Notes: generated by a model from the letters alone, not told the origin. A DNA stretch of 64,000 nt from a virus (IMGVR_UViG_2823949316_000001:5531-69530), one strand, 5' to 3'; positions 3,340-31,603 are shown, numbered from the stretch's first letter. Made by a program: numbers and translations.

Positions 3340-3380
3340 AGAATTTCCTCGGTGGGTGGATTTGGTGAGCGAAGTGTAAG

Positions 3381-3497
3381 TGCAAATTTGAGCAACGCGC
3401 AAGCATTTCACCTGCAATTTCACGGCTTTTACTTATGTGTCATAGATTTGCACGCGGAACTATTGTGGTTGATTGCTCAAATACGATAAACTTGAGC
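3381..3497. promoter_or_regulatory. Divergent early control region with operator-like half-palindromes (TGCAAATTTGAGCAA 3381-3395; TTGCTCAAATACGATAAACTTGAGC 3473-3497)
   Basis: 186-bp non-coding gap between the leftward exonuclease operon and the rightward cro-like gene. The sequences are related to the perfect palindromes at 12670, 15686 and 16492. Confidence 0.45.
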
Positions 3498-3525: not shown

Positions 3526-3762
3526 ATGGGCAGCATCAAAGAGATCGACACCAATCAGCGCGCCTTCCTGGGCAAGCTCGACGAGCTTGAGAACCGCGCT
3601 CACGCGGTAGGCCACACGCTGACCAGCATTTGCGAGCTGTCCGGCGTTGCCCGGGCCACCCCTGATCGCTGGCGCAAGAGCACGCCCAACACCATCAAGC
3701 TCGTCGACAAGCTCGAGGCCGTGGTGGTCGAGGCGGAAAAGCAGGCGGCCAAGGCCCAATAG
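3526..3762 (+). CDS. Cro-like small HTH DNA-binding regulator (78 aa)
   Basis: ORF-track protein with putative HTH ...TLTSICELSGVARATPDRWRK... First gene of the rightward replication operon, divergent from the recombination operon. Confidence 0.5.
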   Translation: MGSIKEIDTNQRAFLGKLDELENRAHAVGHTLTSICELSGVARATPDRWRKSTPNTIKLVDKLEAVVVEAEKQAAKAQ

Positions 3763-3811
3763 CAACCCAATCAGCGGGGCCGCGACCTATCGATAAAGCG
3801 CGGCTTACTTA

Positions 3812-5936: not shown

Positions 5937-6167
5937 ATGAAAGAAAGGATTTTGCAGGCGTACCAGAAGATGCGCGCAGCCGCACGTGGCGCCAAGGGCG
6001 TGGCGCCCGAGCTGACCGACAGTGACCTTGCCGCGGCCGACGTCGCCGCCAAGCATCCCGAGCATGTGCTGCGCCAGGCTGTCGTCATGCGCGCCGCATT
6101 CGAGCGCGAGGCGCTGAAGAACCCGCCGAAGACTGTCGGCCTCGACCTTCCGGTGGTGCCAGCATGA
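5937..6167 (+). CDS. Hypothetical protein (76 aa, MKERILQAYQKMRAAARG...)
   Basis: In-frame ATG inside ORF 5751..6167, after the terminator and with a GGGAC RBS. Stop overlaps the next start (ATGA). Confidence 0.45.
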   Translation: MKERILQAYQKMRAAARGAKGVAPELTDSDLAAADVAAKHPEHVLRQAVVMRAAFEREALKNPPKTVGLDLPVVPA

Positions 6168-6616
6168 GCGATCAAAAACCGACCAACCCCAAGGACATCA
6201 TCGGCAGCACCAAGCTGCCGCTCCACCTCTGGCCAACCACGGCGACCGCCATGGGCTGCATCGGCCTGCTCGAGGGCATGCTGAAGTACGGCCGCCAGAA
6301 CTGGCGCGAGGCAGGCGTGCGCGCGTCGATCTACGTCGATGCCTGCAAGCGCCACCTGGACGCCTGGTTCGAGGGCGAGGAGTGCGCGCCGGACAGCGGC
6401 TCGCCGCACCTGGCCAACGCCATCGCCTGCCTGGCCATCATTATCGACGCCAAGGCTGCCGGCAAGCTGGTGGATGATCGCGCCTACAACGGCGAGGGCT
6501 ATCGCAAGCTCGTCGAGGAGCTGACGCCGCAGGTGGCGCACCTGCAGGAGCTGTTCAAGGACAAGACCCCGCACCACTACACCATCGCCGACAAGGATGC
6601 CGCCAGTGGCCAGTGA
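6164..6616 (+). CDS. Hypothetical phage protein (150 aa); resembles dATP/dGTP diphosphohydrolase N-terminal domain proteins
   Basis: ORF-track protein, ATGA-coupled to the upstream gene. The motif LPLHLWP...KYGRQNWREAG is recalled from phage DUF proteins; the functional assignment is weak. Confidence 0.5.
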   Translation: MSDQKPTNPKDIIGSTKLPLHLWPTTATAMGCIGLLEGMLKYGRQNWREAGVRASIYVDACKRHLDAWFEGEECAPDSGSPHLANAIACLAIIIDAKAAGKLVDDRAYNGEGYRKLVEELTPQVAHLQELFKDKTPHHYTIADKDAASGQ

Positions 6617-10772: not shown

Positions 10773-11248
10773 GCGGCACCTTCCTGCTGGGCGCGGTGGG
10801 CGGCGAGGGCTGCGCGCGCTACGTTGCCGTAATTTCCTCGGCTGGTAGACTCGTAGAACTCCAGCGCAGAAACCAGCCCGCTCATGTCCTGCGCTGCTGG
10901 CTGCTCACCGCTTACAGGGTGCGGGGCGGCGGCGAGCAATCTCTCAAGCACGCTACTCAGGTAGGAAGATGACGCCGCTATGTCCTCCATGTAGCCAAGC
11001 GCACTGCGCCCCGCCTCGTAATCGACAGCGGCCTTATCAACCAGGCGGTACACCTTCCTAGCTGCGTGCAGCATAGTGGTCAGCTCAAGCCGACTTGGAT
11101 TGCTCGACGCCTCCCCGCCTGCCGGCAACTGGGCGCGGGCTTGCCAGATACGCCATGCAACTTCTCGGACAGTTGTGCTCTGGCTACCGCAAGCTGTTTC
11201 GTATGCCGCCTCGAACAGCGCGCGCTCTTGATCGTTGTGGTTACTCAT
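10769..11248 (-). CDS. Hypothetical protein (159 aa, MSNHNDQERALFEAAYETACGS...)
   Basis: In-frame ATG within ORF 10769..11533. Start/stop overlap ATGAGTAA with the upstream Cys-rich gene. Confidence 0.5.
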   Translation of the reverse strand: MSNHNDQERALFEAAYETACGSQSTTVREVAWRIWQARAQLPAGGEASSNPSRLELTTMLHAARKVYRLVDKAAVDYEAGRSALGYMEDIAASSSYLSSVLERLLAAAPHPVSGEQPAAQDMSGLVSALEFYESTSRGNYGNVARAALAAHRAQQEGAA

Positions 11249-12302
11249 GGCGCTGGGCCTCGGTAGGATAGGCCCACGGCCCGGTGTAGTCGCTGAAGTG
11301 GGTGCAGCACTCACGGCGGAAGCAGCGCGTCTTGCAGTCGTGGTGGCATGTGCCGCCGTCAATGCAGCGCTCACCAAGCACCTCCCCATCGCCGACGTTG
11401 GTGGGCTCTGCGCTGGCGGATAGCAGATAATCCGTCTTGCGCCGCAGGTTGTTGATGGCAGGTGATGACTTGCCAAGGTCGGTGTCCAGCCAGTCACGCA
11501 ATATAGCGAACGCCGCATCGCGCTTTCGCTCAATGCCGTTTAGCTCTACGAGCGAATTACGCAGATCGGCCGCATGACGCTCAGCCGCATCGGCGCGCTG
11601 GATTGCGGCTTCGAGTTGACCTTCAAGTTCAGCGGCCTTTTTGAGCACTTTCAGACAGTTGCTGGCCCACCTTTCTTTGTCGGCCAGCAGCCGCTCCCCC
11701 TCGGACGGGTCGGCGTGGGTGAAGAGCGGCCCCAGCTTGGCTATCTCGTCAAGACATTGATTCCAAGTACCATGCCCGTGCTCAGCTATCTCTTGAGTGT
11801 CTTTGCGTTTTGGCAGCGTCACCGGCTGCTGCTCGGACAACGGCTCCCCGTCTTTCAAGCGTTCAATCTCCGGCTCTGTCAACCCTTTGGTGCCACGCCC
11901 AGGAAAACCGCAGTCACGGTTGGGGCAGTAGATGGTACATACGCCGGTAACGCACAATTTCGTACCGCAAAGGCGGCAGAATGTGCCGCCTTTTACCCAC
12001 GCCACCGGCTCCTGCTCAGGCGCGGCGCCAACCTGCTTACATGAGCATGGCAAGCGCCCTTGGTTGCAATCACACGTTTTTGCTTGCTCCGGCGCGGCGC
12101 TGGCCTGGGCCTGCTTCACCTGGTGCAGCTCCTCAGCCAGACGAGCGTTGCGGCCAGCCATGTCGACCGCGGCCCACTCCATGCCGGCGAGGATGGTCTG
12201 CTGCAGCCGGGCGGTGGCCTGGGCGCTAGGTCGGCCAGGATCTTGGGCCAAGCCCTGCGCCAGCTCGAAGGCCTTCAAATCCATTTCAGCGCGCGTGTTC
12301 AT
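11241..12302 (-). CDS. Cys-rich (putative metal-binding) protein, 353 aa, with coiled-coil middle region
   Basis: In-frame ATG (MNTRAEMDLKAFELAQ...) within ORF 11241..12383. Three Cys clusters: CDCNQGRLPCSCKQ, CRLCGTKLCVTGVCTIYCPNRDCGF, CIDGGTCHHDCKTRCFRRECCTHF. The start overlaps the stop of the 37-aa gene (ATGA). Confidence 0.6.
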   Translation of the reverse strand: MNTRAEMDLKAFELAQGLAQDPGRPSAQATARLQQTILAGMEWAAVDMAGRNARLAEELHQVKQAQASAAPEQAKTCDCNQGRLPCSCKQVGAAPEQEPVAWVKGGTFCRLCGTKLCVTGVCTIYCPNRDCGFPGRGTKGLTEPEIERLKDGEPLSEQQPVTLPKRKDTQEIAEHGHGTWNQCLDEIAKLGPLFTHADPSEGERLLADKERWASNCLKVLKKAAELEGQLEAAIQRADAAERHAADLRNSLVELNGIERKRDAAFAILRDWLDTDLGKSSPAINNLRRKTDYLLSASAEPTNVGDGEVLGERCIDGGTCHHDCKTRCFRRECCTHFSDYTGPWAYPTEAQRHE

Positions 12303-12412
12303 GCCAGCCACCCCGCGACGTCCAGCAGGTTGACGGTGATCACCGCCGCAAGGCTGACGGCCATGAAGGTGATGATCTTCCACTTTGCGATTTGCGTCTC
12401 TGCGTTGCGCAT
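12299..12412 (-). CDS. Small hydrophobic protein (37 aa, MRNAETQIAKWKIITFMAVSLAAVITVNLLDVAGWLA)
   Basis: RBS GGAAAGGAAG immediately 5' of the ATG. One predicted TM helix. Coupled to the downstream Cys-rich gene. Confidence 0.4.
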   Translation of the reverse strand: MRNAETQIAKWKIITFMAVSLAAVITVNLLDVAGWLA

Positions 12413-12422: not shown

Positions 12423-12629
12423 TCACTGAGCGTGTTGTTGAGCGCACCGGTCGACGGTGCGCGTGAAGGTCTTGAGGTCTTTCCCGACGCCGTGCTGAGT
12501 GTACGGCGCCGGGCAATTGTGAGGGGGCTCCGCCATCGGTACCGGGCCGGCGATGATCGGGGCGAGTAATGCCCAGGTCAGCCAGGTGGTACATATGGCC
12601 ATGACATGGCCGGCGATGAGTTTCGGCAT
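12423..12629 (-). CDS. Small membrane protein (68 aa, MPKLIAGHVMAICTTWLTWALLAPIIAGPVPM...)
   Basis: In-frame ATG in ORF 12423..12860 with an AAGGGGCAACG RBS. N-terminal TM helix. First gene downstream of the operator/promoter at 12670. Confidence 0.45.
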   Translation of the reverse strand: MPKLIAGHVMAICTTWLTWALLAPIIAGPVPMAEPPHNCPAPYTQHGVGKDLKTFTRTVDRCAQQHAQ

Positions 12630-12668
12630 TGCGTTGCCCCTTGTATTTGTTGGGGCAATACTACGCCA

Positions 12669-12685
12669 TTGCTCAAATTTGAGCA
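12669..12685. promoter_or_regulatory. Perfect 16-bp palindromic operator TGCTCAAATTTGAGCA with minus-strand -10-like TAGTAT 5 bp downstream
   Basis: Lies between the end of a 62-aa gene and the start of the leftward operon at 12629. Same family as the sites at 15686 and 16492. Confidence 0.6.
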
Positions 12686-12709
12686 CGAGAACGCTTAGAA
12701 TGTTTTCTT

Positions 12710-12898
12710 CTATGCGTTGCTGTGAGCTGCGGTAAAAGTATTGATCTCGTTCGCCAGCTTCTGCGCACCGATGGTCGGATGGCGGCTGACGATGATCTTG
12801 GCCTGGCGCAGGAGGCGCATGGCTTCGTCGGTGTCGAAGGGAGCAGACGCACCAGCGCACTGGGCTTCGATGCGGCGTTGAGCAGCTGACTTGTCCAT
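12710..12898 (-). CDS. Hypothetical small protein (62 aa, MDKSAAQRRIEAQCAGASAPFDTDEAMRLLRQAK...)
   Basis: In-frame ATG in ORF 12710..13117. Weak call. Confidence 0.3.
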   Translation of the reverse strand: MDKSAAQRRIEAQCAGASAPFDTDEAMRLLRQAKIIVSRHPTIGAQKLANEINTFTAAHSNA

Positions 12899-12947
12899 GG
12901 CGGGAACTCGGCAGGAGGTGGGCTCACTGCCGAGTTTGGTGTCACGA

Positions 12948-14036
12948 TCAGTCGGGGCGCTTGCCCAGGGCGACGATCTGGTTCGGGGCCTTGGCCCAGC
13001 CCTGCAGCTCGGCGCGAGTGAATTTCCCGGCGTCCATCTGCTCGGCGGCGTACCCACTGAAGCCTGCGCAGTGATAGAGCTTGTGCTCGGTATGCCATAG
13101 GCAGAACACCGGCTCACCTGGCGGCCAGATCAGGTCGCGCAGCACCTCGGCGCGGCGGTAGTCCATTCGCGCCACGGCGGCGTTCAGCTCGCTCTCCAGG
13201 CGCTTGCGACGCAGAGACTTGTTGCGCTTGCAGCGCAGGTCGCCTGGGTTGTCGACATAAAGCTCGAAGCTGGCTTCGTTGGTGACAGCATACTTGCCGC
13301 TGACCACCCACCACATGTTGTTGATGTTGTAGTGGGCGATGCCGGTCTGCGCGCGACCCTTCCGGTCGAAGAAGTAGACGGGCTGGCCATGCTCGAGCAG
13401 CTTGCCATCGGCTGACTTGCGGTTGCTGTTGAAGCAGCTGGAGAGGCCAGGGCTGCTATTGGCGTCGCGGTAGGCCTGCCAGTCTCCCTTGAAGTGCCAG
13501 CTCTCGGAATAGCAGCCATTCAGGTATTCCATAGCCGTTGGCGGCTTGAGTCCGCGCCGCCGTGAACCTCGTCCAGGGCTCTGCTCTTCGAAGGTATAGC
13601 CGATGAACACGTTACAGAGGTAATCGCGGATCCGGCGCCGGGTTCGCTCCATCTCCAGGCGCAGAAGGTAAGGTGCGACGGCTTCTTTGTTCGACTCGTA
13701 GCGGCCCTTGTGATCTGGCCTGGTCGGGGTATTAGCCGACTGCCACATTTCCAGCCTGATGCAGCGCCCACTGAGATCCAGCAGGGCGTGCAGGTGTTCA
13801 CCCTTGCTGCATGTGCGATGGTTGTTGGCGATGATTTTATATTGATCAGCTTCATCCCACGGGCCGACAGTCCAGCCGATGCGGTTCAGTTGCTGGATGA
13901 TCCGAGCGAAAACTTCCCGCTTGAACTTCTTCCCCCAAGCGGTGCGCTCTTCCCAGCTCCCGCCCAGGCCTTCCTCCGAGATATACAGGGCGGCATCGCC
14001 GAAGCGGACAGTGCCCTGTCGATTGATTTGTGGCAT
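12948..14036 (-). CDS. Hypothetical protein (362 aa)
   Basis: ORF-track protein with balanced composition. Its start is preceded by TAAGGAAAGGAAATG and an upstream GCGCCCC-AGC-GGGGCGC hairpin. Confidence 0.7.
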   Translation of the reverse strand: MPQINRQGTVRFGDAALYISEEGLGGSWEERTAWGKKFKREVFARIIQQLNRIGWTVGPWDEADQYKIIANNHRTCSKGEHLHALLDLSGRCIRLEMWQSANTPTRPDHKGRYESNKEAVAPYLLRLEMERTRRRIRDYLCNVFIGYTFEEQSPGRGSRRRGLKPPTAMEYLNGCYSESWHFKGDWQAYRDANSSPGLSSCFNSNRKSADGKLLEHGQPVYFFDRKGRAQTGIAHYNINNMWWVVSGKYAVTNEASFELYVDNPGDLRCKRNKSLRRKRLESELNAAVARMDYRRAEVLRDLIWPPGEPVFCLWHTEHKLYHCAGFSGYAAEQMDAGKFTRAELQGWAKAPNQIVALGKRPD

Positions 14037-14074
14037 TTCCTTTCCTTAGCGCCCCAGCGGGGCGCGGTAGTTGA

Positions 14075-14686
14075 TCAGGACGCGGCCTGCAGCGCGTCGT
14101 TGTGCTTCTTGATTTCAGCGTGCAGGGCTCGCTCCGTCACCTCGACGAACCCGTCTGGGATGACAACCGGGGCGGCTTCCGTCGAGTCGTCATCGCGGTA
14201 TGGCAGGCTGCATGCGACCATCGTCTTTCCGTGGAGCAGGTAGGTCGATGCGTAATTGATCGAGCGGCCACTGAACACGCCGTCTGGCAGGCCAAGGCGA
14301 GCCGCGAAAACCGTGTCGATGGTCGGCCGACGGTATGAATTGGCGCCCTTCAGCTCATCGGGAATCGCGGGGGCACCCTCGCACAGGGTGTCGTAGAACT
14401 TCTTGCCGCGGCCCCGGACGGTGTACTTGAAGTAGTAGACCCCGTTCTCGCAGATGCGCTCGCCGCCCTTGAAGTCAGCGAGCGACGGGCCTACGCGCGG
14501 CGGGTTCTCTTCCTGGCAACGCTTGCAGAAGAACATGGGCACGCTGAATGGGTGCATGCCGAGCTCGTCGAATCCGAGCGCTTCGACCTTCTCCTTGAAG
14601 AACCGATAGCGGTTGGCGGCCTGGGCAGTGATTTCCTTGAGCACTTCAACGTGACGCGGGTCTGTCGAGGTGATGTAGTAGCGCAT
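14075..14686 (-). CDS. Hypothetical protein (203 aa, MRYYITSTDPRHVEVLKEITAQ...)
   Basis: Real start is an in-frame ATG at 14686, preceded by TAAGGAAAGGAAATG and a GCGGCC-AGC-GGCCGC hairpin. The upstream 224 codons of ORF 14075..15358 are Pro/Arg/His-rich read-through of other genes. Confidence 0.7.
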   Translation of the reverse strand: MRYYITSTDPRHVEVLKEITAQAANRYRFFKEKVEALGFDELGMHPFSVPMFFCKRCQEENPPRVGPSLADFKGGERICENGVYYFKYTVRGRGKKFYDTLCEGAPAIPDELKGANSYRRPTIDTVFAARLGLPDGVFSGRSINYASTYLLHGKTMVACSLPYRDDDSTEAAPVVIPDGFVEVTERALHAEIKKHNDALQAAS

Positions 14687-14727
14687 TTCCTTTCCTAAGC
14701 GGCCAGCGGCCGCGGTGTTGGTGGTCG

Positions 14728-15027
14728 TTATGCTGCTGCGAAGTGATGGCTGCCGACGCTGACGGCGACGATGCGGCGCCCGGCGCGGTACTCGGTTGCG
14801 GTGGTGGCGGTGTTGTAGCGGGTGCGCAGCCGGCCTGCGGTGGTCAGCGGCAGCAGGATCTTGTCCAGCTGTTCGGTGGTGACGGCGATGATCTTGCGCT
14901 TCATGGTGCGTTCCTTGATGTAGGAGGAGGCTTCCGCTTCCGTGGTGAATACAGCGAGCAGGCGGCCAGTGGTCACGCGGGTGACGCGGTGCAGGCCAGC
15001 GCAGTCGACGGTGATGGCGAGGGTCAC
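14728..15027 (-). CDS. Hypothetical protein (about 99 aa, ...TLAITVDCAGLHRVTRVTTGRLLAVFTTEAEASSYIKERTMKRKIIAV...)
   Basis: GTG start overlapping the upstream stop (GTGA). An alternative in-frame GTG lies at 15036. It is the 3' part of ORF 14728..15171. Confidence 0.4.
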   Translation of the reverse strand: MTLAITVDCAGLHRVTRVTTGRLLAVFTTEAEASSYIKERTMKRKIIAVTTEQLDKILLPLTTAGRLRTRYNTATTATEYRAGRRIVAVSVGSHHFAAA

Positions 15028-15383
15028 AGCTTGCACCCTGCAGCCAGGACAGCAGAGGTGCGGTGCACGTCGCCTTGGGTGCCCAGGCCAACCAGGGCAG
15101 AGCGGGCGGCGCGCTCGCTGTCGAAGGTATTGCCCTCGACGCCGGCCTCCTCGTCCGCCAGCTCGAACCAAGCCTTGCCGAAGCGGCCGTGGTGGAGCTT
15201 GCCGATAATGAAGGGTTTGGTTGGCAGCAATTTGCCTTCGGCCTGCAGCTCGGCGATGGTCGGGCCGGTGGCGACCAGGGCGTCGAAGTCGACGGTGGTG
15301 GCGGGTGCCTGGCCGGCGTTGACGCGCACGATGGCGCCCGCGTCTTCCAGCTGCTCAAGCATGAGTTGGGTTTGCGTATTCAT
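15024..15383 (-). CDS. Hypothetical protein (119 aa, MNTQTQLMLEQLEDAGAIVRVNAG...)
   Basis: ORF-track protein. GAGGATCAACCCGCC RBS. A GCCCC-TTAACT-GGGGC hairpin lies upstream. Confidence 0.55.
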   Translation of the reverse strand: MNTQTQLMLEQLEDAGAIVRVNAGQAPATTVDFDALVATGPTIAELQAEGKLLPTKPFIIGKLHHGRFGKAWFELADEEAGVEGNTFDSERAARSALVGLGTQGDVHRTSAVLAAGCKL

Positions 15384-15460
15384 GGCGGGTTGATCCTCGC
15401 TCGTGTGTTGGCTGGTACTGCCAAAGCCCCAGTTAAGGGGCGTGTGGGTGGCGGGGTTGG

Positions 15461-15634
15461 TTACTCAGCGAGCATGTAACCTTCGCCGTCAACAACAAAG
15501 CGGCTTCCATCCTTGAGCAGATAGATGCGGCTGCCGTCTTCAGCATCGATAATTTGATTGCTGAGCATGCGCGCCTGAATACGTGCACCAGTAACGCTTT
15601 TTGCGGTCTCGAGGATGTCTTGTGCGTCGGTCAT
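15461..15634 (-). CDS. Hypothetical small protein (57 aa, MTDAQDILETAKSVTGARIQARMLSNQIIDAEDG...)
   Basis: In-frame ATG with strong CTGGAGGGCAAGACG RBS. First gene downstream of the promoter/operator at 15686. Confidence 0.45.
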   Translation of the reverse strand: MTDAQDILETAKSVTGARIQARMLSNQIIDAEDGSRIYLLKDGSRFVVDGEGYMLAE

Positions 15635-15685
15635 CGTCTTGCCCTCCAGGGCGTTGTTCGTTTCGATGGGGCAATTATGCTTGAG

Positions 15686-15703
15686 TTGATCAAATTTGAT
15701 CAA
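15686..15703. promoter_or_regulatory. Perfect 18-bp palindrome TTGATCAAATTTGATCAA overlapping a leftward sigma70-like promoter (-35 TTGATC, 18-nt spacer, -10 CATAAT)
   Basis: Read on the minus strand: TTGATCAAATTTGATCAACTCAAGCATAAT, then a GGAGGG RBS and the start of the gene at 15634. Confidence 0.65.
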
Positions 15704-15826
15704 GCAACGCATTAGATCAGTTTGGCATAAGAGCGTGCGAATACTGGCTTGCCATCATCAGCGGGCGGGTAGCCATCCCGGCCCGGACAACCCCAGCTCG
15801 GTGCAAGCCTGGGGCGGTTTCGGCGG

Positions 15827-16087
15827 TTACGCGATGTCGTAGCGGGCGTGCCTCTGCTTGATGTCGCTGAGGCGGATGTTCAACGAGGCCATCATCGCTT
15901 TCTGGAAGCCTTCCCAGGTGGCCTGGGTCTCCGGATCGAAGTAGCGATCGAACTGACCGTTCACAGTGATGGTGCCGAGCGGGAGGACGGGTGTCAGGGT
16001 CGACGTCCAAGCCTCGAAATGCTTCTGGGTCATGCGGCCGGCCGCATTGGTGATCTCGACCGGCAGGTGGCTGGCGATGATGGTCAT
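15827..16087 (-). CDS. Hypothetical protein (86 aa)
   Basis: ORF-track protein MTIIASHLPVEITNAAGRMTQKHFEAW..., downstream of the 95-aa gene in the same leftward unit. Confidence 0.5.
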   Translation of the reverse strand: MTIIASHLPVEITNAAGRMTQKHFEAWTSTLTPVLPLGTITVNGQFDRYFDPETQATWEGFQKAMMASLNIRLSDIKQRHARYDIA

Positions 16088-16135
16088 GTCAGTTCCTTGT
16101 GGTGGTTGGCCCGGCTGCCCGGGCGTGATGGTCGG

Positions 16136-16423
16136 TTATGGCTTGTAGTGGGTGGCCAGCTCGAAGCTGCGCGCCAGGTCTTTCTTCAGCGCCTCGATCG
16201 TTTCATGGCTCAGGCCGTCGCGGATCACCACCGGCTTGATGATCTCGCGGCCGCCCAGCACGGTGAGCTGCAGCAGGACACCGGAGGCCATCAGGTGGTC
16301 GGTGGATGCCTTGGCGATGTCCTTCGAAGCGAACGCATAGACGTAGGCCAGCTGACCATTCAGCTCCATGACCTTGCGCTCGAGGTCGCGGTAGGTCGGT
16401 TTTTTGGTGGTGTTGCGAGCCAT
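16136..16423 (-). CDS. Hypothetical protein (95 aa, MARNTTKKPTYRDLERKVMELNGQ...)
   Basis: ORF-track protein. GAGGGGGG RBS. First gene downstream of the operator/promoter at 16492. Confidence 0.55.
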   Translation of the reverse strand: MARNTTKKPTYRDLERKVMELNGQLAYVYAFASKDIAKASTDHLMASGVLLQLTVLGGREIIKPVVIRDGLSHETIEALKKDLARSFELATHYKP

Positions 16424-16491
16424 GGTGATTGCCCCCCTCGGTCGGTTGCTGTCCGGAGTGTGTCTCCGTGTTGGGTTGCATTGTGCCTGCG

Positions 16492-16513
16492 TTGCTCAAA
16501 TTTGATCAAGCAA
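16492..16513. promoter_or_regulatory. Palindromic operator TTGCTCAAATTTGATCAAGCAA overlapping a leftward promoter (-35 TTGATC, 18-nt spacer, -10 CACAAT)
   Basis: Same family as the sites at 12670 and 15686. Lies in the 117-bp gap between the Rha-like gene and the 95-aa gene. Confidence 0.6.
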
Positions 16514-16540: not shown

Positions 16541-17224
16541 TTAAAACAAACGCTCTTCCGCGCTACCTACCAATGCCTCAAGCAGCAGGTCGGCTTGCAC
16601 AGACACGACCTTCGACGAGTGCCCGCCAAAGCTCTTGGTGCCGTGGCGCTCGGCGCCATCAATGGCGCAGAACATCTGGCCCAGGCTGGCGGTCTCGACG
16701 CCGGCGCGCTGTGCCAGGCCGACCATCGCTGGCGTGGACATGCCGAGCCAGATCCGATCGCCGACCTTGCGCAGTCCGAACTCCTTGACGATTTCGCGTC
16801 GTTCGCCGGTGCCGTCTGCCAGCTTCTCTATGGCGGCCACGAACCCCATCTGACTGCCGACCGAGGCACGCAGCTCTGTGTGATCGACGTATGTCCTGAC
16901 CAGCGGGACAGCCGGCTGTATGCGGTTGAACACTGCGCCGATGCTGTCGCACTGGGCTTTCTTCAGGTTCAAGTGAACGGCCAGCGCCATCAAGTCGCCG
17001 ACCCGCAGCCGCGTATCCTTCTCATAAGCGAGCGAACCATCACGCTGCGGCAGCACGTCTTTGTCGAGTGTTCCGGCCGTCACCATGTCGCAGAGGTGGC
17101 GGATAAAGGCGCGGTGATCCATGCCGAGTTTATCGGCGACGATTTTGCTGTTGATGCTTGCTGCCATGGCGAGCCCCATAAAGTGGTTGTGGTTGTTGCG
17201 GTTGGAATTGTCCCATGCCCACAA
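16541..17224 (-). CDS. Phage regulatory protein, Rha-family-like N-terminus (antirepressor-like), about 227 aa
   Basis: N-terminal ...SINSKIVADKLGMDHRAFIRHLCDM... matches the Rha pattern S.LIAE.FGK.H.NVLR.I recalled from phage Rha proteins. The start codon is ambiguous (17224, 17179 or 17167). Confidence 0.5.
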   Translation of the reverse strand: MWAWDNSNRNNHNHFMGLAMAASINSKIVADKLGMDHRAFIRHLCDMVTAGTLDKDVLPQRDGSLAYEKDTRLRVGDLMALAVHLNLKKAQCDSIGAVFNRIQPAVPLVRTYVDHTELRASVGSQMGFVAAIEKLADGTGERREIVKEFGLRKVGDRIWLGMSTPAMVGLAQRAGVETASLGQMFCAIDGAERHGTKSFGGHSSKVVSVQADLLLEALVGSAEERLF

Positions 17225-17269
17225 CCTTGTCGCAACCGTTGCAACCTAGTTGACGGGCAGGGCGCGCAG

Positions 17270-17740
17270 CCAGAAAGCAGGGGCGACCGACCGCAAAAAC
17301 TGCGGAAACTGCTTTTTCGCCTGTATTTGCTGGCTGTTTGATCGAGGGGCGACCGACAAATGCAGTCTGGTCGCTCTTTTGGTCGCGCCCAGTGCCGCGA
17401 CTAATGCCCAAAAGGCGACCGGGCCGCGTCTCCCGTTTCTGCCAATGAATACAGGGCATTTGGCGGGGAGCGTCCAAAGCGACCGCTCCAGCCGGAAAAA
17501 GGTATAAGTAGGAATATACGGTTGTGCTGGTTGTGAATTGATAACACAACTATCACAACCAAGTTTAAGTCCTATAGGGGGCTTATATATATGGTTTCTT
17601 GGTTTCTCTTATTATTATTATTTAAATAAGTTATTGTTTTTATTATTATTATAGGGCCTTTTATGGGGCAACCAGAGGGGCAACCAAGGAGCAACCAGCA
17701 GCAGCGACCGGTCGCCCTAGTGACCGTCCGTCAACTTCTC
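17270..17740. repeat. Iteron-rich, AT-rich island (candidate replication origin / regulatory hub)
   Basis: At least 7 copies of GCGACC(G/A) in both orientations (17283, 17345, 17367-17390, 17412, 17479, 17708). About 100 bp of very AT-rich DNA (17560-17660) carries two (TTA)3-4 runs in a 63% GC genome. Three direct GGGCAACCA-like repeats at 17665-17700. TTGTG...CACAA dyad at 17531-17560. Confidence 0.5.
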
Positions 17741-17820
17741 GCAAATTACTCGGAATTATTTACCACCAGGCCAAGTCACCTGTAGAATTGCCCGCAGCAC
17801 TTACCGCTGGGGCAGCAGCA

Positions 17821-18345
17821 ATGGTCGAATACTTCACGCTGGAAGAACTACCGGACAGACCCATGTTCCGGTGCGAACGCAGGAACGCCACGCTACAGGT
17901 CTCGGCATGCGCCGGGATGTGGAGCGAAGCCAACGGCAAAGCCGCACCCGAACGTCTCGACCGTTGCAAGAATTGCCCACTGGGCGCAAAGCATGCCGGG
18001 GTCGGTGAAATCTCACTGTCACCGCTCAGGGGCATGAGCATCTGCGCTCGCTGTCACCAGGGCACCACCCGGCTCATTCGCAAGCACCTGTGCGTCAGCT
18101 GCTACAACCGCGAACGCGAGTTCAACCTGGGCCGCAATGCCAAGGGCTCAGCACCCGTCAAGCATCCTCCGCTGCACAACATCGAGATCCGCTACCAGGC
18201 CGGGGAAGTTCTCCAGCGCCTGGCGATGCCTGTTGTGTCGAGCGAGGAACTGGTGGTCGCAGCGCTCAGGGATACGAGCAAACAAGTTACATTCGCATTC
18301 AGCGGTAAGCGGCCAGAGATGCCGCAGGGAGAGTTGTTTGTATGA
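17821..18345 (+). CDS. Hypothetical Cys-rich protein (174 aa)
   Basis: In-frame ATG (MVEYFTLEELPDRP...) in ORF 17788..18345. First gene of the long rightward gene string. Several CxxC-type pairs. Confidence 0.5.
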   Translation: MVEYFTLEELPDRPMFRCERRNATLQVSACAGMWSEANGKAAPERLDRCKNCPLGAKHAGVGEISLSPLRGMSICARCHQGTTRLIRKHLCVSCYNREREFNLGRNAKGSAPVKHPPLHNIEIRYQAGEVLQRLAMPVVSSEELVVAALRDTSKQVTFAFSGKRPEMPQGELFV

Positions 18346-18728
18346 GCGCGCAGAATTCACAGGGTCGGCCGGCTGATAGCGTTATCATCGGGCAAAATCA
18401 CGTGCGCGCGATAGAGAGGGAAAACACCTCCGGTTGGCGCCTCGAGCAGCACTGCTGCCGGAACTGCTTCGGGCGCATCGCCTCGATCAAGCATCCTGAC
18501 GGCGGTCGCACGTACCAGTGCACCAACTGCGGCCTGGAAGGCCACGGCCACAAGCCTGACGTGGTGTGCTCGTGCGGCACCAAGCTGCGCAAGTACAAGG
18601 GCGACGGCCGCACCGGCGTGGTCATGGTCGACGCGGGCATCCGCTGCCACCCGAACAAGCGGGTCTCGCCTGAGTTCCCGTCGCTGATCGTGGCCAGCTA
18701 TGGCGGCGCCCAAGCGGAGGGTGTGTGA
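18342..18728 (+). CDS. Zinc-ribbon protein (128 aa; CCRNC...CTNCG...CSCG)
   Basis: ORF-track protein. ATGA-coupled to the upstream gene. Confidence 0.5.
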   Translation: MSAQNSQGRPADSVIIGQNHVRAIERENTSGWRLEQHCCRNCFGRIASIKHPDGGRTYQCTNCGLEGHGHKPDVVCSCGTKLRKYKGDGRTGVVMVDAGIRCHPNKRVSPEFPSLIVASYGGAQAEGV

Positions 18729-19461: not shown

Positions 19462-19832
19462 ACGTCTGCACCTGGAAGGCGCCCATGGTCACCCTGTACA
19501 CCGGCGAGCAGGTGCCCAGCGACAGCGAGGCCTGGCGCGCTGAGTGTGAGGCGCGCCACATCCTGACCATGACCCAGGCCCAGCGCATGGAGTTCTTCAC
19601 CATGGTCGAGAAGCGCCGCGGCACCGACGCAGCCAAGGCCCTCAAGATGCGCTGCTACGAGCTCGAGCCGCACTACGTGCTCAACCTGCCGAACAAGCAG
19701 CAGCGGCAGCACTACCTGGACGCCGTCGAGCTGCGCTTCGGCAAGAACCCATGCGACACCCTGAAGGCCAAACTGCTCGCCCTGCACGCCGCGCGACAAC
19801 CAGTTGCAGCGCAGGTTCAACAAAGCGCATAA
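19458..19832 (+). CDS. Hypothetical protein (124 aa)
   Basis: ORF-track protein. ATGA coupling. Confidence 0.5.
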   Translation: MNVCTWKAPMVTLYTGEQVPSDSEAWRAECEARHILTMTQAQRMEFFTMVEKRRGTDAAKALKMRCYELEPHYVLNLPNKQQRQHYLDAVELRFGKNPCDTLKAKLLALHAARQPVAAQVQQSA

Positions 19833-19876
19833 TTGCTCAAATACAACGCACCGGCGGAGCCGGTAAGGGGAAAGGG

Positions 19877-20128
19877 GTGAGCAAACTTCTCAGGCTGCTG
19901 GATATCATCGTCCCGCGCTTCATTTCCGAGGACACGGCAGTTCGCCGCGTCGGAAAATCGTCGATGTACGAGCCAGTGTGCTCGATGAAAGACATCGACC
20001 CAGGTGAGCGTTTCGATGGGATCGCCACCTACGTGATGTTCAACCTGTTCGGCCAGGGCCTGTTCCCTCGCCAGGTGGGCAGCATCCGCCCCTGGGTGAA
20101 CCCGCACGACGCGCAGGTGGCATCGTGA
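19877..20128 (+). CDS. Hypothetical protein (83 aa, MSKLLRLLDIIVPRFISEDTAV...)
   Basis: GTG start after an ACCGGC-GGA-GCCGGT hairpin and the AAGGGGAAAGGGGTG cassette. In-frame 3' part of ORF 19751..20128. Confidence 0.45.
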   Translation: MSKLLRLLDIIVPRFISEDTAVRRVGKSSMYEPVCSMKDIDPGERFDGIATYVMFNLFGQGLFPRQVGSIRPWVNPHDAQVAS

Positions 20129-23736: not shown

Positions 23737-24189
23737 ATGACCATGGCGGAGCTGACCGAGGTGACCGGCATCCCGTCGCGCGTGCTCGCCGCGCAAAAGC
23801 GTGCAGAGGGCTGGGCCAAGGTGGTCAAGTCCGGCCAAACCGAAGAGGCCGCAGAGGCGGTGATCCGCTTCAACGAGTGGAAGATGCAGGTCGCCGAGGT
23901 CAACGCCCGCGATGGCGAGGCCATGCCGAACCTGGCCGTGCCCCTGCACGAGGACGCCGTGCACAAGCTGCTCGAGCGCCACAAGGCCGAACTGATCGCG
24001 CCGCGCGTCCTGTCGCAGGAGGCGATCAAGATCCGGCACAGCGACCCGAACATGGCGTTCCAGAAGGCGAAGCTGGCCAAGATCACGGCCGAGACGCTGG
24101 ACATCCTGCATCGGGCCGAGCGCCGGGCCTTTGGCGTGAAGGACGACGAGAAGCCGGGCGGCGGCGTGGTGGTGGTGGAGCGGACATGA
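23737..24189 (+). CDS. HTH DNA-binding protein (about 150 aa); possibly a small-terminase-like or regulatory protein
   Basis: ATG 23737 (alternative in-frame GTG at 23671) in ORF 23338..24189. N-terminal ...MAELTEVTGIPSRVLAAQKRAEGW... Stop overlaps the ParB-MTase start (ATGA). Confidence 0.4.
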   Translation: MTMAELTEVTGIPSRVLAAQKRAEGWAKVVKSGQTEEAAEAVIRFNEWKMQVAEVNARDGEAMPNLAVPLHEDAVHKLLERHKAELIAPRVLSQEAIKIRHSDPNMAFQKAKLAKITAETLDILHRAERRAFGVKDDEKPGGGVVVVERT

Positions 24190-25694
24190 GCGACCTGAGC
24201 AAGATGATGGGCCTCGACCCGGACGTGCCGCAGATCAAACTGCGCCCGCTCGACAGCCTGGTGGCCTACGCCCGCAACAGCCGCACGCACTCGCCGGCCC
24301 AGGTCGAGCAGCTGCAGGCCCTCCTGCTGGAATACGGCTGGACGAACAGCGTCCTGATCGACGACATGGGCATCGTCGCCGGGCACGGGCGCTGCATGGC
24401 CGCTGAGGCGATCTACAAGCGCGGCGAGCAGATCAAGTTCCCGAATGGCACGCCGATCCCGATCGGCATGGTGCCGACCATGGACGTCACCGGCTGGAGC
24501 GCGCAGCAGCGCCGGGCGTACATCATCGCCGACAACCGCTCCGCCCTGTCCGCGGGCTGGGACGACGAAATGCTGAAGCTGGAGCTGGCCGAGCTGAAGG
24601 AAGCCGACTTCGACCTGTCGCTGACCGCCTTCGACGAGGACGAGCTGGCGGCGCTGCTGGCGCCGGAGATCGAGCTGCCCGAAGACAAGGATCCGGACGC
24701 AGCACCTGCAGCACCCGATGAGCCCGTCAGCGTGCCGGGCGACGTGTGGGTGATGGGCGCGCACCGGCTGTGCGTCGGTGATGCCACCAGCGTCGATGCC
24801 TGGGATCGCCTGCTGGGCACCGAGCAGGTCGATATCGTCTGGACAGATCCACCCTACAACGTCGACCAGGGCCGCAAGAACCGCGAGCAGGACAAGTGGG
24901 ACGGCGGCAACCGCGCGGACACGGGCGCGATCGCCAACGACAAGATGTCGCCGGCCGAGTTTTCCGAGTTCCTGCAGACCACCTTCGCCACCCTGTTCGG
25001 CGTGATGAAGCCAGGGGCGCCGATCTACGTGGCGCACTCCGACCTCGAGGGCCAGACCTTCCGCAACGCCTTCGCCGACGCCGGCCTGCACCTGCAGTCC
25101 TGCCTGGTCTGGAAGAAAGACCGGATGGTGCTGGGGCGCATGGACTGGCAGAGCATCCACGAGCCGATCCTGTACGGCTGGAAGAAGGGCAGCGCGCACC
25201 GCTGGTACGGCGGCCGCAAGAACACCAGCGTGATCGACCTGGGCGACGGCTCGCCGTTCACCCGCATGGAGGATGGCCGGTACCAGGTGCGCATCGGCGA
25301 GAGCGTGCTGGTGGTGTCGGCGGATGCCATGGTCGAGCAGCATCCGTCGTCGATGTTGTTCGAGCCCAAGCCGGCGAGCAGTGGCCTGCATCCGACGCAG
25401 AAGCCCGTTGCCCTTGTCGAGCGGATGCTGAAGCAGTCCGCACGTGCCGGCGACCTGGTGGCCGATGCCTTCGGCGGATCCGGCAGCACGCTGATCGCCG
25501 CCGATCGCCTGGGCATGTCGGCACGCCTGATGGAGCTCAGCCCGAAGTTCGCCGACGTGATCGTGCGGCGCTGGGAGCACTACAGCGGGCGCAAGGCGGT
25601 GCACGCGGTGACCGGCGAGGAGTTCCCGGGCGAGGGCGAGGCCCGCGCGCTACCGCCGCAGGTTGATGACCTTGACGACGAAGCGTTGTTCTGA
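24186..25694 (+). CDS. ParB-like nuclease domain fused to beta-class N6A/N4C DNA methyltransferase
   Basis: In-frame ATG (MSDLSKMMGL...) in ORF 23877..25694. ParB-like N-terminus (KLRPLDSLVAYARNSRTHSPAQVEQL). Motif IV VWTDPPYN followed by C-terminal motif I DAFGGSGST. Confidence 0.85.
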   Translation: MSDLSKMMGLDPDVPQIKLRPLDSLVAYARNSRTHSPAQVEQLQALLLEYGWTNSVLIDDMGIVAGHGRCMAAEAIYKRGEQIKFPNGTPIPIGMVPTMDVTGWSAQQRRAYIIADNRSALSAGWDDEMLKLELAELKEADFDLSLTAFDEDELAALLAPEIELPEDKDPDAAPAAPDEPVSVPGDVWVMGAHRLCVGDATSVDAWDRLLGTEQVDIVWTDPPYNVDQGRKNREQDKWDGGNRADTGAIANDKMSPAEFSEFLQTTFATLFGVMKPGAPIYVAHSDLEGQTFRNAFADAGLHLQSCLVWKKDRMVLGRMDWQSIHEPILYGWKKGSAHRWYGGRKNTSVIDLGDGSPFTRMEDGRYQVRIGESVLVVSADAMVEQHPSSMLFEPKPASSGLHPTQKPVALVERMLKQSARAGDLVADAFGGSGSTLIAADRLGMSARLMELSPKFADVIVRRWEHYSGRKAVHAVTGEEFPGEGEARALPPQVDDLDDEALF

Positions 25695-28872: not shown

Positions 28873-29163
28873 ATGATATCGAGCTTCCGAGATGCCTGGC
28901 TGCATGAGTTCTACGTCAACGGTACCGGGCACCGGCTGATCCCTGGCGCTATGGAAGGGGCTCTGGCCAGGAAGCTGGACATCATCCGCTTCGCCACGAC
29001 CGAGGGCGATCTGCGGGTACCGCCCGGGAACCGGTTCGAGCACCTGCACGGCAAGCTGGCCGCCTACTGCTCGATCCGGGTCAACAAGCAGTACCGCCTG
29101 ATCTTCCGCTGGAACGACGGCAAAGCGAGCGACGTATACCTGGATCCGCACACGTACCGGTGA
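28873..29163 (+). CDS. higB: HigB-like (RelE/ParE superfamily) toxin
   Basis: 96 aa. C-terminal ...RVNKQYRLIFRWNDGKASDVYLDPHTY matches the HigB/killer-protein pattern (..WRITF.F.NGDAY.L.Y.DYH). Confidence 0.7.
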   Translation: MISSFRDAWLHEFYVNGTGHRLIPGAMEGALARKLDIIRFATTEGDLRVPPGNRFEHLHGKLAAYCSIRVNKQYRLIFRWNDGKASDVYLDPHTYR

Positions 29164-29168
29164 GAGAC

Positions 29169-29474
29169 ATGATCGAGACCAACCGCAAGCCCACGACTGT
29201 CGGCGAGATCCTGACCGCCGAGTTCCTGGAGCCGATGGAGCTGACCCAGACCGACCTGGCCCGGGCCATGGGCGTGCAGACGCGCCTGGTCAACGAGCTG
29301 TGCCGCGATCGCCGGGCCGTGACCGCGGACACCGCCCTGATGCTGGCCGGCGTGTTCGGCACGTCGCCTGAATTCTGGCTCAACGCCCAGCAGGCCACCG
29401 ACCTGTGGGAGGCCATGCACGACGAGAAGCGCCGGCAGCGTATTGCCCGGGCGCGGCCGCTGCAGGCTGCCTGA
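29169..29474 (+). CDS. higA: HigA-like XRE-family HTH antitoxin
   Basis: ...ELTQTDLARAMGVQTRLVNELCRDRRAVTADTALMLAGVFGTSPEFWLNAQ... Overlaps the higB stop (GTG at 29160 or ATG at 29169). Confidence 0.7.
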   Translation: MIETNRKPTTVGEILTAEFLEPMELTQTDLARAMGVQTRLVNELCRDRRAVTADTALMLAGVFGTSPEFWLNAQQATDLWEAMHDEKRRQRIARARPLQAA

Positions 29475-29572: not shown

Positions 29573-30787
29573 ATGGAAGCGCCGTACCAGCTTCACCTGG
29601 GCGACTGCCTGGCAGTGCTCAAAACCCTACCTGACAACTCCGTCGACAGCATCGTCACCGACCCTCCCTATGGCCTGAGCAAAGAGCCCGACATGCTCGA
29701 GGTGTTGCGCCACTGGATGGCCGGCGACGACTACCAGCACAAGGGCGGCGGTTTCATGGGCAAGACCTGGGACAGCTTCGTGCCCGGGCCGAGCGTGTGG
29801 CGCGAGAGCCTGCGCGTGCTCAAGCCTGGCGGCCACCTGCTGGCGTTCTTCGGCACGCGGACGCAGGACATGGGCACGCTGGCTATTCGTTTGGCTGGCT
29901 TCGAGATCCGCGACAGCATCGCCTGGGTGTACGGGTCGGGTTTCCCGAAGTCGCACAATCTTGAGGGCGAGTGGGAAGGCTGGGGTACTGCGCTCAAGCC
30001 GGCGCTGGAGCCGATCGCGGTGGCGCGCAAGCCATTCCGCGGCACCGTGGCGACCAACGTGCTGGCGCACGGCACTGGGGCGCTGAATATCGATGGGTGC
30101 CGGGTCGGTACGACGGTCGAGACATGGCCAAAGTCGAAAAGTTACACTCGACAGGAGCCTGGCGGTCGAGGCGAGAAGGAGTACCAGCTTACAGGAGAGG
30201 CGCCCGCCGGCCGCTGGCCCGCCAACCTGATCCACGACGGCAGCGACGAGGTGGTGGAGCTTTTCCCTGCGCAGGCCGGCGCAGCTGCTCCGGTGCGAGG
30301 CACTGAGGACAGCAAGGCCAGCGTCGGCAATGTGACTGGCGAGCGTGAGCGTGTTCCTGGCGCCTTCCACGCCGACAACGGCAGCGCTGCCCGCTTCTTC
30401 TACTGCGCCAAGGCCAGCCGCAAGGATCGCCACGAGGGCCTGGATGATCCTGGCGCTCAATTCAAGCGCGGCACCACCCTGCGCCAGGTCGAGAACACCG
30501 CGACAACCGGCAACAACCACCCGACCGTCAAGCCCACCGACCTGATGGCCTACCTGTGTCGGCTGGTGACGCCGCCGGGCGGTGTGGTGCTTGACCCGTT
30601 CATGGGTAGCGGCAGTACCGGCAAGGCCGCCATGCGCGAGGGCTTCCGCTTCATCGGCTGCGAGCTGTCGCCGGAGTACCTGGCGATCGCCGAGGCGCGC
30701 ATCGAGCACGAGCTGGTGAAGCGCGCGCCTGAGCCAGCGGTCGTGCAGGCGGTGCAGCAGGATATGTTCGCCCAGGAGGCCGTGTGA
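29573..30787 (+). CDS. Beta-class N6-adenine/N4-cytosine DNA methyltransferase (404 aa)
   Basis: Motif IV SIVTDPPYGL near the N-terminus and motif I DPFMGSGSTGKAA near the C-terminus. Confidence 0.85.
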   Translation: MEAPYQLHLGDCLAVLKTLPDNSVDSIVTDPPYGLSKEPDMLEVLRHWMAGDDYQHKGGGFMGKTWDSFVPGPSVWRESLRVLKPGGHLLAFFGTRTQDMGTLAIRLAGFEIRDSIAWVYGSGFPKSHNLEGEWEGWGTALKPALEPIAVARKPFRGTVATNVLAHGTGALNIDGCRVGTTVETWPKSKSYTRQEPGGRGEKEYQLTGEAPAGRWPANLIHDGSDEVVELFPAQAGAAAPVRGTEDSKASVGNVTGERERVPGAFHADNGSAARFFYCAKASRKDRHEGLDDPGAQFKRGTTLRQVENTATTGNNHPTVKPTDLMAYLCRLVTPPGGVVLDPFMGSGSTGKAAMREGFRFIGCELSPEYLAIAEARIEHELVKRAPEPAVVQAVQQDMFAQEAV

Positions 30788-31519: not shown

Positions 31520-31603
31520 AGGTGTTGCAATTGATCAGAAAAGAGTAATAGAATTGCGTCACTGCCGAGGCATGAGCCAGGCAGAACTCCAGAGGAAAGG
31601 AAT

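Follow-up and report, generated by a model that had tools for sequence, protein, structure and literature searches.

In the 64,000-nt stretch of viral DNA IMGVR_UViG_2823949316_000001:5531-69530 (the window; positions are counted from its first letter), an 18-bp palindrome of the type TTGMTCAAATTTGAKCAA, with the consensus TTG(A/C)TCA-N4-TGA(G/T)CAA, recurs on the core elements of promoters dispersed over the sequence, and is probably the operator of a dimeric repressor encoded by the phage itself. The window reads as about two-thirds of an integrated, Dolphis-like temperate myovirus of ~93 kb. As an explanation of the whole pattern, we lean, by a little, towards a single phage dimer acting at promoter-embedded dyads to control a dispersed regulon, with a small Cro-like protein as merely the likeliest binder. 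A preliminary description of this DNA had proposed that dyads placed on core promoter elements behave as the operators of one dimeric regulator, and this is supported by their excess, their location and their conservation across the phage clade. The repressor–operator reading rests on the dyad always overlapping a −35 element, a spacer or a −10 element.

Three of the dyads lie on minus-strand promoters of accessory operons. On re-reading the sequence, the palindromes described at 12670, 15686 and 16492 were indeed found to overlap leftward sigma70-like promoters. The sequence at 12670–12685 (TGCTCAAATTTGAGCA) is a perfect 16-bp palindrome, that at 15686–15703 (TTGATCAAATTTGATCAA) is a perfect 18-bp palindrome, and that at 16492–16509 (TTGCTCAAATTTGATCAA) is an 18-bp dyad that departs from symmetry at a single position; the last had been taken for a 22-nt palindrome (16492–16513), but the dyad is limited to the 18-mer. 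Site strengths are given here in bits from a weight matrix built solely from the sites of relatives. The predicted promoter/operator of accessory operon 1 (16480–16509, minus strand; TTGATC-18-CACAAT, −10 at 16480–16485; 32.9 bits) serves the genes at 16136–16423 and 15827–16087, with the ATG at 16423. That of operon 2 (15674–15703, minus; TTGATC-18-CATAAT, −10 at 15674–15679) has the strongest site, at 35.7 bits, and serves 15461–15634 plus the genes to ~12710, from an ATG at 15634. That of operon 3 (12658–12686, minus) contains the dyad 12669–12686 in the arrangement GTGCTC-17-TAGTAT (−10 at 12658–12663; 25.2 bits), and serves 12423–12629 (68 aa) and 11241–12383, the ATG being at 12629. When the gene starts were re-read, a good ribosome-binding site (RBS) and an ATG followed each of these three promoters.

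The dyad is strongly over-represented in the window. Allowing up to three mismatches, the degenerate 18-mer has 7 matches compared with 0.06 expected, and none of 100 shuffles reached 7. A palindrome scan had been recommended in the preliminary description, and in an unbiased version covering all 5+5 dyads with gaps of 0–12, TCAAA/TTTGA ranked first (5 observed, 0.008 expected). The relatives-only weight matrix gives 16 matches of at least 10 bits in the window, against 0.37 in Markov-simulated sequence. Moreover, 13 of the 14 matches of at least 15 bits are intergenic, where intergenic DNA makes up 14% of the window (binomial p ~1e-10); a site at 385 was scored as intergenic in this count despite its coding label, being mostly in a 39-bp gap before the gene that starts at 399.

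Promoters were placed relative to the dyads by simple promoter scoring, oriented toward the downstream gene, and two registers emerged. In register A, the left half-site is itself the −35, and the −10 begins 23–24 nt after the start of the dyad; the leftward sites 12669, 15686 and 16492 and the rightward sites 34770 and 46250 are of this kind. In register B, which comprises 3378, 3473, 31531, 44188, 53856 and 54866, a separate −35 (usually TTGC..) lies 5–10 nt upstream and the dyad fills the 18-nt spacer, often entering the −10. The idea that the left half-site supplies the −35 thus holds for the five register A sites but fails at about half of the sites, where the dyad is in the spacer or on the −10. 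It follows from the register B sites that both half-sites are conserved even when they are dispensable as promoter hexamers. Approximately 11 of the ~17 distinct predicted intergenic promoters bear the dyad, and it is missing from predicted promoters in the A+T-rich region around 17.6 kb and at 38075; because some predicted promoters are without it, the dyad is not merely the promoter consensus of the phage. Nor is the regulon chiefly one of three accessory operons, as had been supposed: its sites also stand at the operons for recombination and for replication, at several operons read rightward and at the leftward genes that separate terminase from portal, and relatives have a further one next to the phage attachment site (attP).

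The window has a G+C content of 63%, and none of the sequenced phages is closely related to it at the nucleotide level. Its 960-aa primase/helicase is 65% identical to its counterparts in Dolphis (a 93.5-kb phage of Pseudomonas putida, MT711888) and Jeremy; the figure is 54% for Touem01, a phage of P. syringae, and 49% for the Bordetella phage PHB04. The gene order parallels that of Dolphis, running through gp47–gp48, replication genes, leftward small genes of unknown function, a long rightward methyltransferase-rich block and the terminase, portal and head genes. The 92.6-kb contig that encodes these very proteins stops at a tRNA 3′ fragment some 4 kb beyond the left end of the window, directly after a PIF1-type helicase gene, a position whose counterpart in Dolphis is the gap between gp43 and the integrase gene; since the contig terminates in a tRNA fragment, the prophage is placed beside a tRNA gene. 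Relatives were collected by tblastn with the primase, by exact-pattern scans and by look-ups of Cro-like homologues, giving a comparison set of Dolphis, Jeremy, Touem01, PHB04 and several metagenomic relatives; the IMG/VR relatives L004 and L005, as well as L010, L109 and L111, are among the sequences compared. The helicase alone as query found two loci in viral contigs and no confirmed relative in genome contigs.

The same dyad is widespread in these relatives. A matrix made from the window's seven sites detects, in the three complete genomes, 14 sites in Dolphis, 12 in Touem01 and 15 in PHB04, compared with 0.6–1.7 expected, and 5–9 in each shorter relative, and an unbiased scan of Touem01 ranks TGATC-N6-GATCA first (7 observed, 0.05 expected). 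The Dolphis sites are at equivalent places, upstream of gp81 (first leftward), gp50 (cro-like), gp106 and the leftward gp4, with a further site between integrase and gp43. L004 and L005 carry TTGMTCAAATAAGAKCAA on their leftward promoters, with the same half-sites around a non-palindromic centre. A 33-nt promoter core in L010 is 97% identical to 16480–16512, compared with 67–75% for its flanks. When the intergenic region between the exonuclease and cro-like genes was aligned for six phages, the best-conserved block, T..TCAAATA.GATA.ACT, proved to be the operator of the cro promoter together with its −10. The most strictly conserved dyad is the attP-side site ATGATCATAAATGATCAA, between integrase and attP, which is kept in four relatives and has no recognisable promoter. 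The exact 18-mer has 87 matches in 185,579 species genomes, mostly low-GC, of which 2 are in Pseudomonas and 1 is in a related Dyella prophage; exact-pattern scans of viral and species genomes returned mostly chance matches, and the relatives among them were just L010 and L073. The rarity of the sequence in hosts, combined with its occurrence throughout the clade, therefore argues for a clade-specific, phage-encoded recognition system and not for a host regulon. A fixed 95-bp spacing between the exonuclease and cro sites was considered and discarded, as it is found in the window and L005, with 50 bp in Dolphis and Jeremy and 30 bp in L111. The main divergent region of L111, a distant relative, has four dyad-type sites at intervals of exactly 45 bp (17775–17927), the outer two being mutually reverse-complementary, which suggests a multi-operator array.

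Our first candidate for the binder, put forward tentatively, is a 78-aa Cro-like helix-turn-helix (HTH) protein encoded at 3526–3762 on the plus strand, the first gene of the rightward helicase–SSB–primase operon. The predicted promoter of this gene (3463–3492, plus; TTGTGG-18-TAAACT) has a dyad at 3473–3490 (TTGCTCAAATACGATAAA; 25.2 bits) that fills the spacer and overlaps the −10. An operator is present within the cro-like gene's own promoter in six of eight relatives, and in every relative examined the gene adjoins a dyad-bearing divergent promoter region. The protein has no Pfam family (HTH_23 scores below threshold, E 0.095) and no PHROG match. Nine homologues were found among 5.8 billion proteins, and members of the family are 41–56% identical overall to the window protein. 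The HTH segment, TLT.IC...RATPDRW, is invariant in 12 of 13 members, the PHB04 homologue having RATPNRW, and in a profile search of PDB sequences it aligns, again below threshold, to HTHs of the TetR/IclR type. The AlphaFold2 (AF2) model has four helices, with a predicted local distance difference test score (pLDDT) of 75, and its long terminal helices could dimerise. The nomination of this protein as a regulator was therefore a reasonable one, given its conservation in the clade, its invariant HTH and the operator in its own promoter.

Other proteins fared less well. As described previously, no CI-like gene lies beside cro, the opposite gene being the exonuclease; among the window proteins scanned against Pfam there is no HTH_3/S24 repressor, and the sole XRE-type HTH is the HigA antitoxin. 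A Rha-like protein (16541–17167, minus) had also been named as a possible regulator, and is rejected because relatives that keep the motif are without it: Dolphis has no homologue of it, nor do the stretches of L005 and L010 that were fetched, and Touem01 has no annotated counterpart at that position. The protein has no match to Phage_pRha or any other Pfam family (E up to 1), and none in PHROG. The HigA antitoxin itself (29160–29474) was rejected since Dolphis and Jeremy have no HigA homologue, and a MazEF-type pair there instead. The remaining conserved DNA-binding candidates are a 71-aa HTH_17 protein and an HU-like protein, both encoded just left of the window, an AraC-family protein and the cysteine-rich proteins of 17788–18728. 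The ranking of binders is the Cro-like protein first, an unrecognised maintenance repressor second and the HTH_17 or HU-like protein third.

Several observations weigh against the Cro-like protein, or against one dimer accounting for all of the sites. The cro-like gene is read in the same direction as the replication genes, and no clear terminator follows it; from this position its product would not be an obvious sole silencer of a lysogen, and a separate maintenance repressor may therefore exist. A Foldseek search of the moderately confident Cro-like model against the PDB gave no match with E <1. Among the relatives found, none has both the recognition helix and the half-site changed; PHB04 differs at just one helix residue, and its sites are merely more degenerate. 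Finally, the attP-side location of the most conserved dyad would be no less natural for a recombination-linked protein than for the Cro-like protein.

In the mechanism that we envisage, the operator would be built into most sigma70-type promoters across the clade, and a bound dimer would cover the −35, the spacer or the −10 and exclude RNA polymerase, with about a dozen scattered operons being switched off together. The strongest sites (33–36 bits) are on leftward accessory operons, and sites of 17–25 bits are on the replication, recombination and other promoters; with site strength graded in this way, repression would be graded with repressor concentration. Rising levels of Cro-like protein would silence the early accessory operons first and its own operon, which has a weakened operator, last. 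Such a circuit could provide early shut-off in infection and, with or without a second protein, silencing of the prophage. A more far-reaching version, which we consider doubtful, is that the Dolphis/PHB04-like temperate myoviruses lack a CI-type repressor altogether and that one small HTH protein of an undescribed family (78–117 aa, ~10 known members) controls the whole 93-kb genome. If it were true, ~13–15 promoter dyads and the attP site would couple early shut-off, lysogenic silencing and integration/excision, and the system would represent an independent invention of a P1-like dispersed immunity regulon.

Foremost among the alternatives, and in our estimate a modest though serious chance, is that the main binder is an unrecognised lysogeny-maintenance repressor, possibly sharing the sites with the Cro-like protein, just as OR and OL are used by both CI and Cro in lambda. 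An integrated prophage with a dozen or more sigma70-like promoters needs silencing, a role for which a cro-like gene heading a replication operon without a clear terminator is awkwardly suited. Most window proteins have no family assignment, and the repressor could be encoded among these proteins of unknown function or in the ~28 kb of prophage outside the window. However, there is no CI/LexA-like, P1 C1-like or other conserved HTH candidate in the window or in the 4 kb to its left, and none in the annotations of Dolphis, Jeremy and Touem01. The sole conserved reverse-oriented late gene, that of Dolphis gp14, is 61–64% identical between Pseudomonas and Bordetella phages and looks structural; its 286-aa product was considered as the missing repressor and rejected as being too conserved and without a Pfam match.

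The attP-side dyad bears on a second and rather unlikely alternative, in which the binder is the 71-aa HTH_17 (excisionase/AlpA-like) protein or the HU-like protein, encoded in a leftward operon beside attP and acting both at attP and at the promoters. There is precedent for such behaviour: P2 Cox and 186 Apl act at the att site and at promoters, and SPO1 TF1 acts at early promoters. That the most strictly conserved dyad, ATGATCATAAATGATCAA, has no promoter would fit this explanation, and the window's prophage, Dolphis, Jeremy and Touem01 all have both genes. Against it, no HU gene was called in the examined 19–20 kb of L109 and L111 or is annotated in PHB04, all of which bear the dyad; furthermore, proteins of the Cox/Apl/Xis type usually bind arrays of direct repeats rather than isolated 18-bp palindromes, and HU is rarely sequence-specific.

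We regard it as improbable that the dyads are bound by a host protein, such as Fis, IHF or a factor of the FNR/CRP type, which would tie the phage promoters to host physiology. The half-site TTGAT/ATCAA does resemble FNR/Anr half-sites and the ATCAA of IHF sites, GNTYAAA...TTTRANC resembles the core of a Fis site, and the IHF and Fis sites of lambda likewise lie beside attP. Yet the details do not agree with any of the three: every copy has TTGAT-N8-ATCAA where FNR/Anr would require N4, the G...C span is 14 bp and not the 15 bp of Fis, and no conserved TTR follows ATCAA as in IHF sites. Relatives that infect Pseudomonas putida, P. syringae, Bordetella and Dyella use the same dyad, Pseudomonas chromosomes show no enrichment of perfect sites (2 matches in all species genomes), and unrelated Pseudomonas phages that carry the 5′ untranslated region (5′UTR) module adjoining one of the dyads have no dyad.

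A slimmer chance still is that there is no dedicated binder, the promoters being duplicated cassettes and the palindrome a by-product of a favoured −35 and an A+T-rich spacer. The leftward promoters do share an upstream TTCCAAAC..GTTCTAAGC block and TGCCCC behind the −10, and the rightward promoters share a 5′UTR hairpin and RBS. Copying of cassettes does not readily account for a dyad that is kept at two registers, at the promoterless attP-side site and where the flanking cassette sequences have diverged, since the sequence of a sigma70 spacer is not otherwise constrained; nor does it explain the predicted promoters of the 17.6-kb region and 38075, which have no dyad. The notion that the palindromes are DNA or RNA hairpins, for example terminators of upstream operons or cruciforms, draws on the perfect self-complementarity of 12670–12685 and 15686–15703 and on several sites lying just after the preceding gene, and can be dismissed, as the predicted folds are weak and inconsistent (−2.9 to −8.4 kcal/mol, with none at 16492 and 34770), no U-run follows the dyads, the window has no Rfam match, and relatives have non-palindromic centres (AAATAA) between conserved half-sites. 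Covariation of positions 4 and 15 (A...T versus C...G) was considered as evidence for a hairpin and set aside, the sites being too few for significance. A switch based on Dam-type methylation was also considered and not adopted: the frequency of GATC in the window is ordinary (471, compared with 418 expected), and many sites carry GAGC. A tRNA scan of the window found nothing.

The proposed operator system resembles both the lambdoid and the P1 C1 operators in function and is a member of neither group. As in the lambdoid OR/OL regions, dyad operators of ~17–18 bp with graded strengths lie over the −35 and −10 of early promoters, and a small Cro-like HTH gene is the first of a rightward replication operon opposite a leftward recombination operon. 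In contrast to the lambdoid arrangement, there is no cI gene and no tandem OR1-3, only single sites on each side, 95 bp apart; the sites extend over >55 kb instead of two loci, and the Cro-like protein falls outside the Cro/CI Pfam families. The P1 C1 regulon has 22 operators with the asymmetric 17-bp sequence ATTGCTCTAATAAATTT (PMC8546580). Both P1 and the phage studied here are temperate myoviruses of ~93–94 kb with one operator type dispersed at promoters (here 13–16 sites), many of the operators overlap the −35, and both operator types contain TTGCTC. The differences are that the P1 operator is an asymmetric 17-mer, as opposed to a symmetric 18-bp dyad, and that the P1 prophage is a plasmid whereas the present element is integrated beside a tRNA gene. 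A tblastn search with P1 C1 (283 aa) against the window, L003, Dolphis and Touem01 found no homologue (best E 0.7).

Two further systems are comparable. The KorA/KorB operators of IncP plasmids are short palindromes that coordinate many operons through about a dozen copies; KorB, however, is a ParB-family protein acting up to kilobase distances, whereas all sites here are in core promoters, and a ParB-like domain occurs in the window only at the N-terminal end of a DNA methyltransferase. The stoperators of cluster A mycobacteriophages are likewise many dispersed sites for an immunity repressor, but they are asymmetric 13–14-mers, oriented with transcription and mostly within transcribed regions, where they block elongation; the sites described here are symmetric and located at promoters. 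The dyad sequences do not occur in the searchable literature, and the single paper that discusses this phage group contains nothing on promoters or repressors, Dolphis itself being unpublished. Neither the dyad site nor its regulator has been described before, although the type of control is a familiar, textbook one.

For temperate myoviruses of ~90–95 kb from Pseudomonas, Bordetella and related hosts, the dyad maps promoters and one co-regulated gene set. It offers a handle on how these phages hold lysogeny without a recognisable CI, and a test bed consisting of one site and one candidate. The compact promoters, of the form TTGATCAAATTTGATCAA-N6-CATAAT and predicted to be strong and repressible, could serve as genetic parts in Pseudomonas. 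An anti-defence role had been suggested for the regulated leftward genes, and this is unsupported: they have no PADLOC match and essentially no function assigned by Pfam or PHROG.

The remaining sites of the window are dispersed over both arms. Most of the degenerate relatives listed in the preliminary description are real, some with shifted coordinates, namely 3378 (given as 3381), 3473, 34770 (given as 34780), 44188, 46250, 53846/53856 and 58004 (given as 58010). The exception is 19829, which is merely a half-site just past the −10 of another promoter, TTGCAG-18-CATAAT. Three sites, 385, 31531 and 54866, were absent from that list. The first is a dyad, TTGATTATAAATGATTAG, at 385–402 on the minus strand (16.4 bits), in the 39-bp gap that separates the AAA-ATPase and gp47-like genes within the leftward recombination operon. 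The dyad includes a minus-strand TATAAT, and its position is shared by sites in Touem01 (68171), L004 (7044), L109 (6778) and L111 (5342). The exonuclease/AAA operon has a predicted promoter at 3373–3402 on the minus strand, with TTGCGC (3397–3402), an 18-nt spacer and TACACT (3373–3378), and a half-degenerate dyad at 3378–3395 in the spacer; the block CAAATTTGAG.AACGCGCAAGCA of this promoter is kept in Touem01, L004, L005, L109 and L111.

On the rightward arm, the predicted plus-strand promoter at 31525–31554 (TTGCAA-18-TAGAAT) has a dyad at 31531–31548 in its spacer (19.5 bits) and precedes an SPFH/Band7 gene at 31604–32470; equivalents are found in Dolphis at 79622 (TTGCGC-GTCATCAAATTTGAGTAA-TATAAT) and in Jeremy. 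At 34770–34799 (plus), the dyad 34770–34787 (TTGCGCATATTTGAGCAA; 22.2 bits) gives the −35, followed after 18 nt by TACACT, and the promoter would serve 34847–35434. The plus-strand promoter at 44180–44209 (TTGCGC-18-TACGCT), with the dyad 44188–44205 (TTAATCAAATTTGATATA; 24.4 bits) in its spacer and −10, precedes a conserved gene (44247–44600) and a methyltransferase gene, with equivalents at Touem01 19162 and Dolphis 89148. A further dyad that gives the −35 lies at 46250–46267 (TTGCTCATATCTGAGCAA; 24.7 bits), within a plus-strand promoter/operator at 46250–46279 whose −10, TACAAT, follows after 18 nt; it would serve 46327–46845.

Two overlapping dyads, 53846–53863 (19.6 bits) and 53856–53873 (20.8 bits), lie within the minus-strand promoter TTGCAT-18-TATGAT at 53846–53878, which would serve 53070–53789 (Nmad5) and beyond; its equivalent is Dolphis 4030, upstream of the leftward gp4. 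Another leftward promoter (54863–54892, minus; TTGCGC-18-TATCAT) includes a weak dyad at 54866–54883 (17.4 bits), upstream of 54633–54830, and has equivalents at Touem01 30755 and Dolphis 4491. The last site, a weak dyad at 58004–58021 on the plus strand (TTGCGCTAAAATGATCAA; 19.8 bits), is in the gap before a small membrane-protein gene (58043–58258) in the head-gene region; it gives a poor promoter reading, and an equivalent site is present at Dolphis 7626.

Some features of the sequences flanking the promoters are also shared. About 5–10 nt upstream of the dyad, a second block, TTCCAAAC-N-GTTCTAAGC, is found at 12690–12715 and 15707–15732 in the window, and also at the leftward accessory promoters of L004, L005, L010 and Touem01, including one inverted copy in L010; it might act as an UP-like element or be bound by a second factor. 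The 5′UTR and RBS behind the 15686 promoter (cgaaacgaacaacgccctggagggcaagacgATG, 15634–15668, minus) match sequences of Persinger and PPpW-3, two unrelated Pseudomonas phages, at 97–100% identity; in those phages this 5′UTR module sits behind a different promoter that has its own palindrome, GTTTACGTGCGTAAAC, and no dyad. It appears to be a mobile translation-initiation module. The rightward leaders at 19830–19880, 34800–34846 and 46280–46326 are alike, with a short G+C hairpin (for example GCCGGGCAACGCCCGGC) and then an RBS of the GGGGAAAGG type, which suggests a repeated 5′UTR cassette, possibly one that stabilises the mRNA.

Between the cro-like and helicase genes, five relatives have a hairpin with a stem of the GCGCGG/CCGCGC type and a 10–17-nt loop, with some compensating changes (window 3763–3811, L002 640–690, L106 25095–25125, L109 10298–10330 and L111 8940–8972). 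As no U-run lies behind it, it is not a classical terminator, and may be a processing or attenuation signal. No dyad site is present in the divergent region of 563 bp, devoid of genes, that separates the Rha-like gene from the cysteine-rich genes (17230–17790). This region contains six copies of GCGACCG within 430 bp, four of them at intervals of 66, 66 and 64 bp, as well as three tandem GGGGCAACCA repeats and a nearly pure A+T tract of ~70 bp with strong promoter-like hexamers, and resembles an origin of the iteron type or a master control region. At the start of the long rightward arm, 17788–18345 and 18342–18728 encode two cysteine-rich, zinc-finger-like proteins that are possible transcription factors for later genes. 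Identity to Dolphis is 82% for the first, which ranks among the best-conserved non-structural proteins of the window, and 71% for the second; the annotation of Dolphis gp82 spans just the C-terminal half of the 17788–18345 homologue, which is thus under-annotated.

The window also encodes a dense set of DNA-modification proteins (6164–6616, 23877–25694, 29573–30787, 44597–46246 and 53070–53789), consisting of a dATP/dGTP diphosphohydrolase (PF18909, MazZ-like), three large DNA methyltransferases, one of which carries a fused ParB-like N-terminal domain, and an Nmad5 nucleotide-modification protein. Such a set may leave the phage DNA heavily modified, with a possible effect on operator recognition. 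At 28873–29474 there is a HigB-like toxin with a HigA-like HTH antitoxin, and Dolphis and Jeremy have an oppositely oriented MazEF pair at that position, suggesting that the toxin–antitoxin slot is exchangeable between relatives. A protein identical to the 78-aa Cro-like protein is filed at NCBI as hypothetical, from a 1.44-Mb contig of Microvirga lupini. The phage relatives found all have Pseudomonas or Bordetella hosts, and Pseudomonas phage DNA is nearly identical to parts of the window; the host to which that assembly is assigned merits a check, and the host of the prophage is left open.

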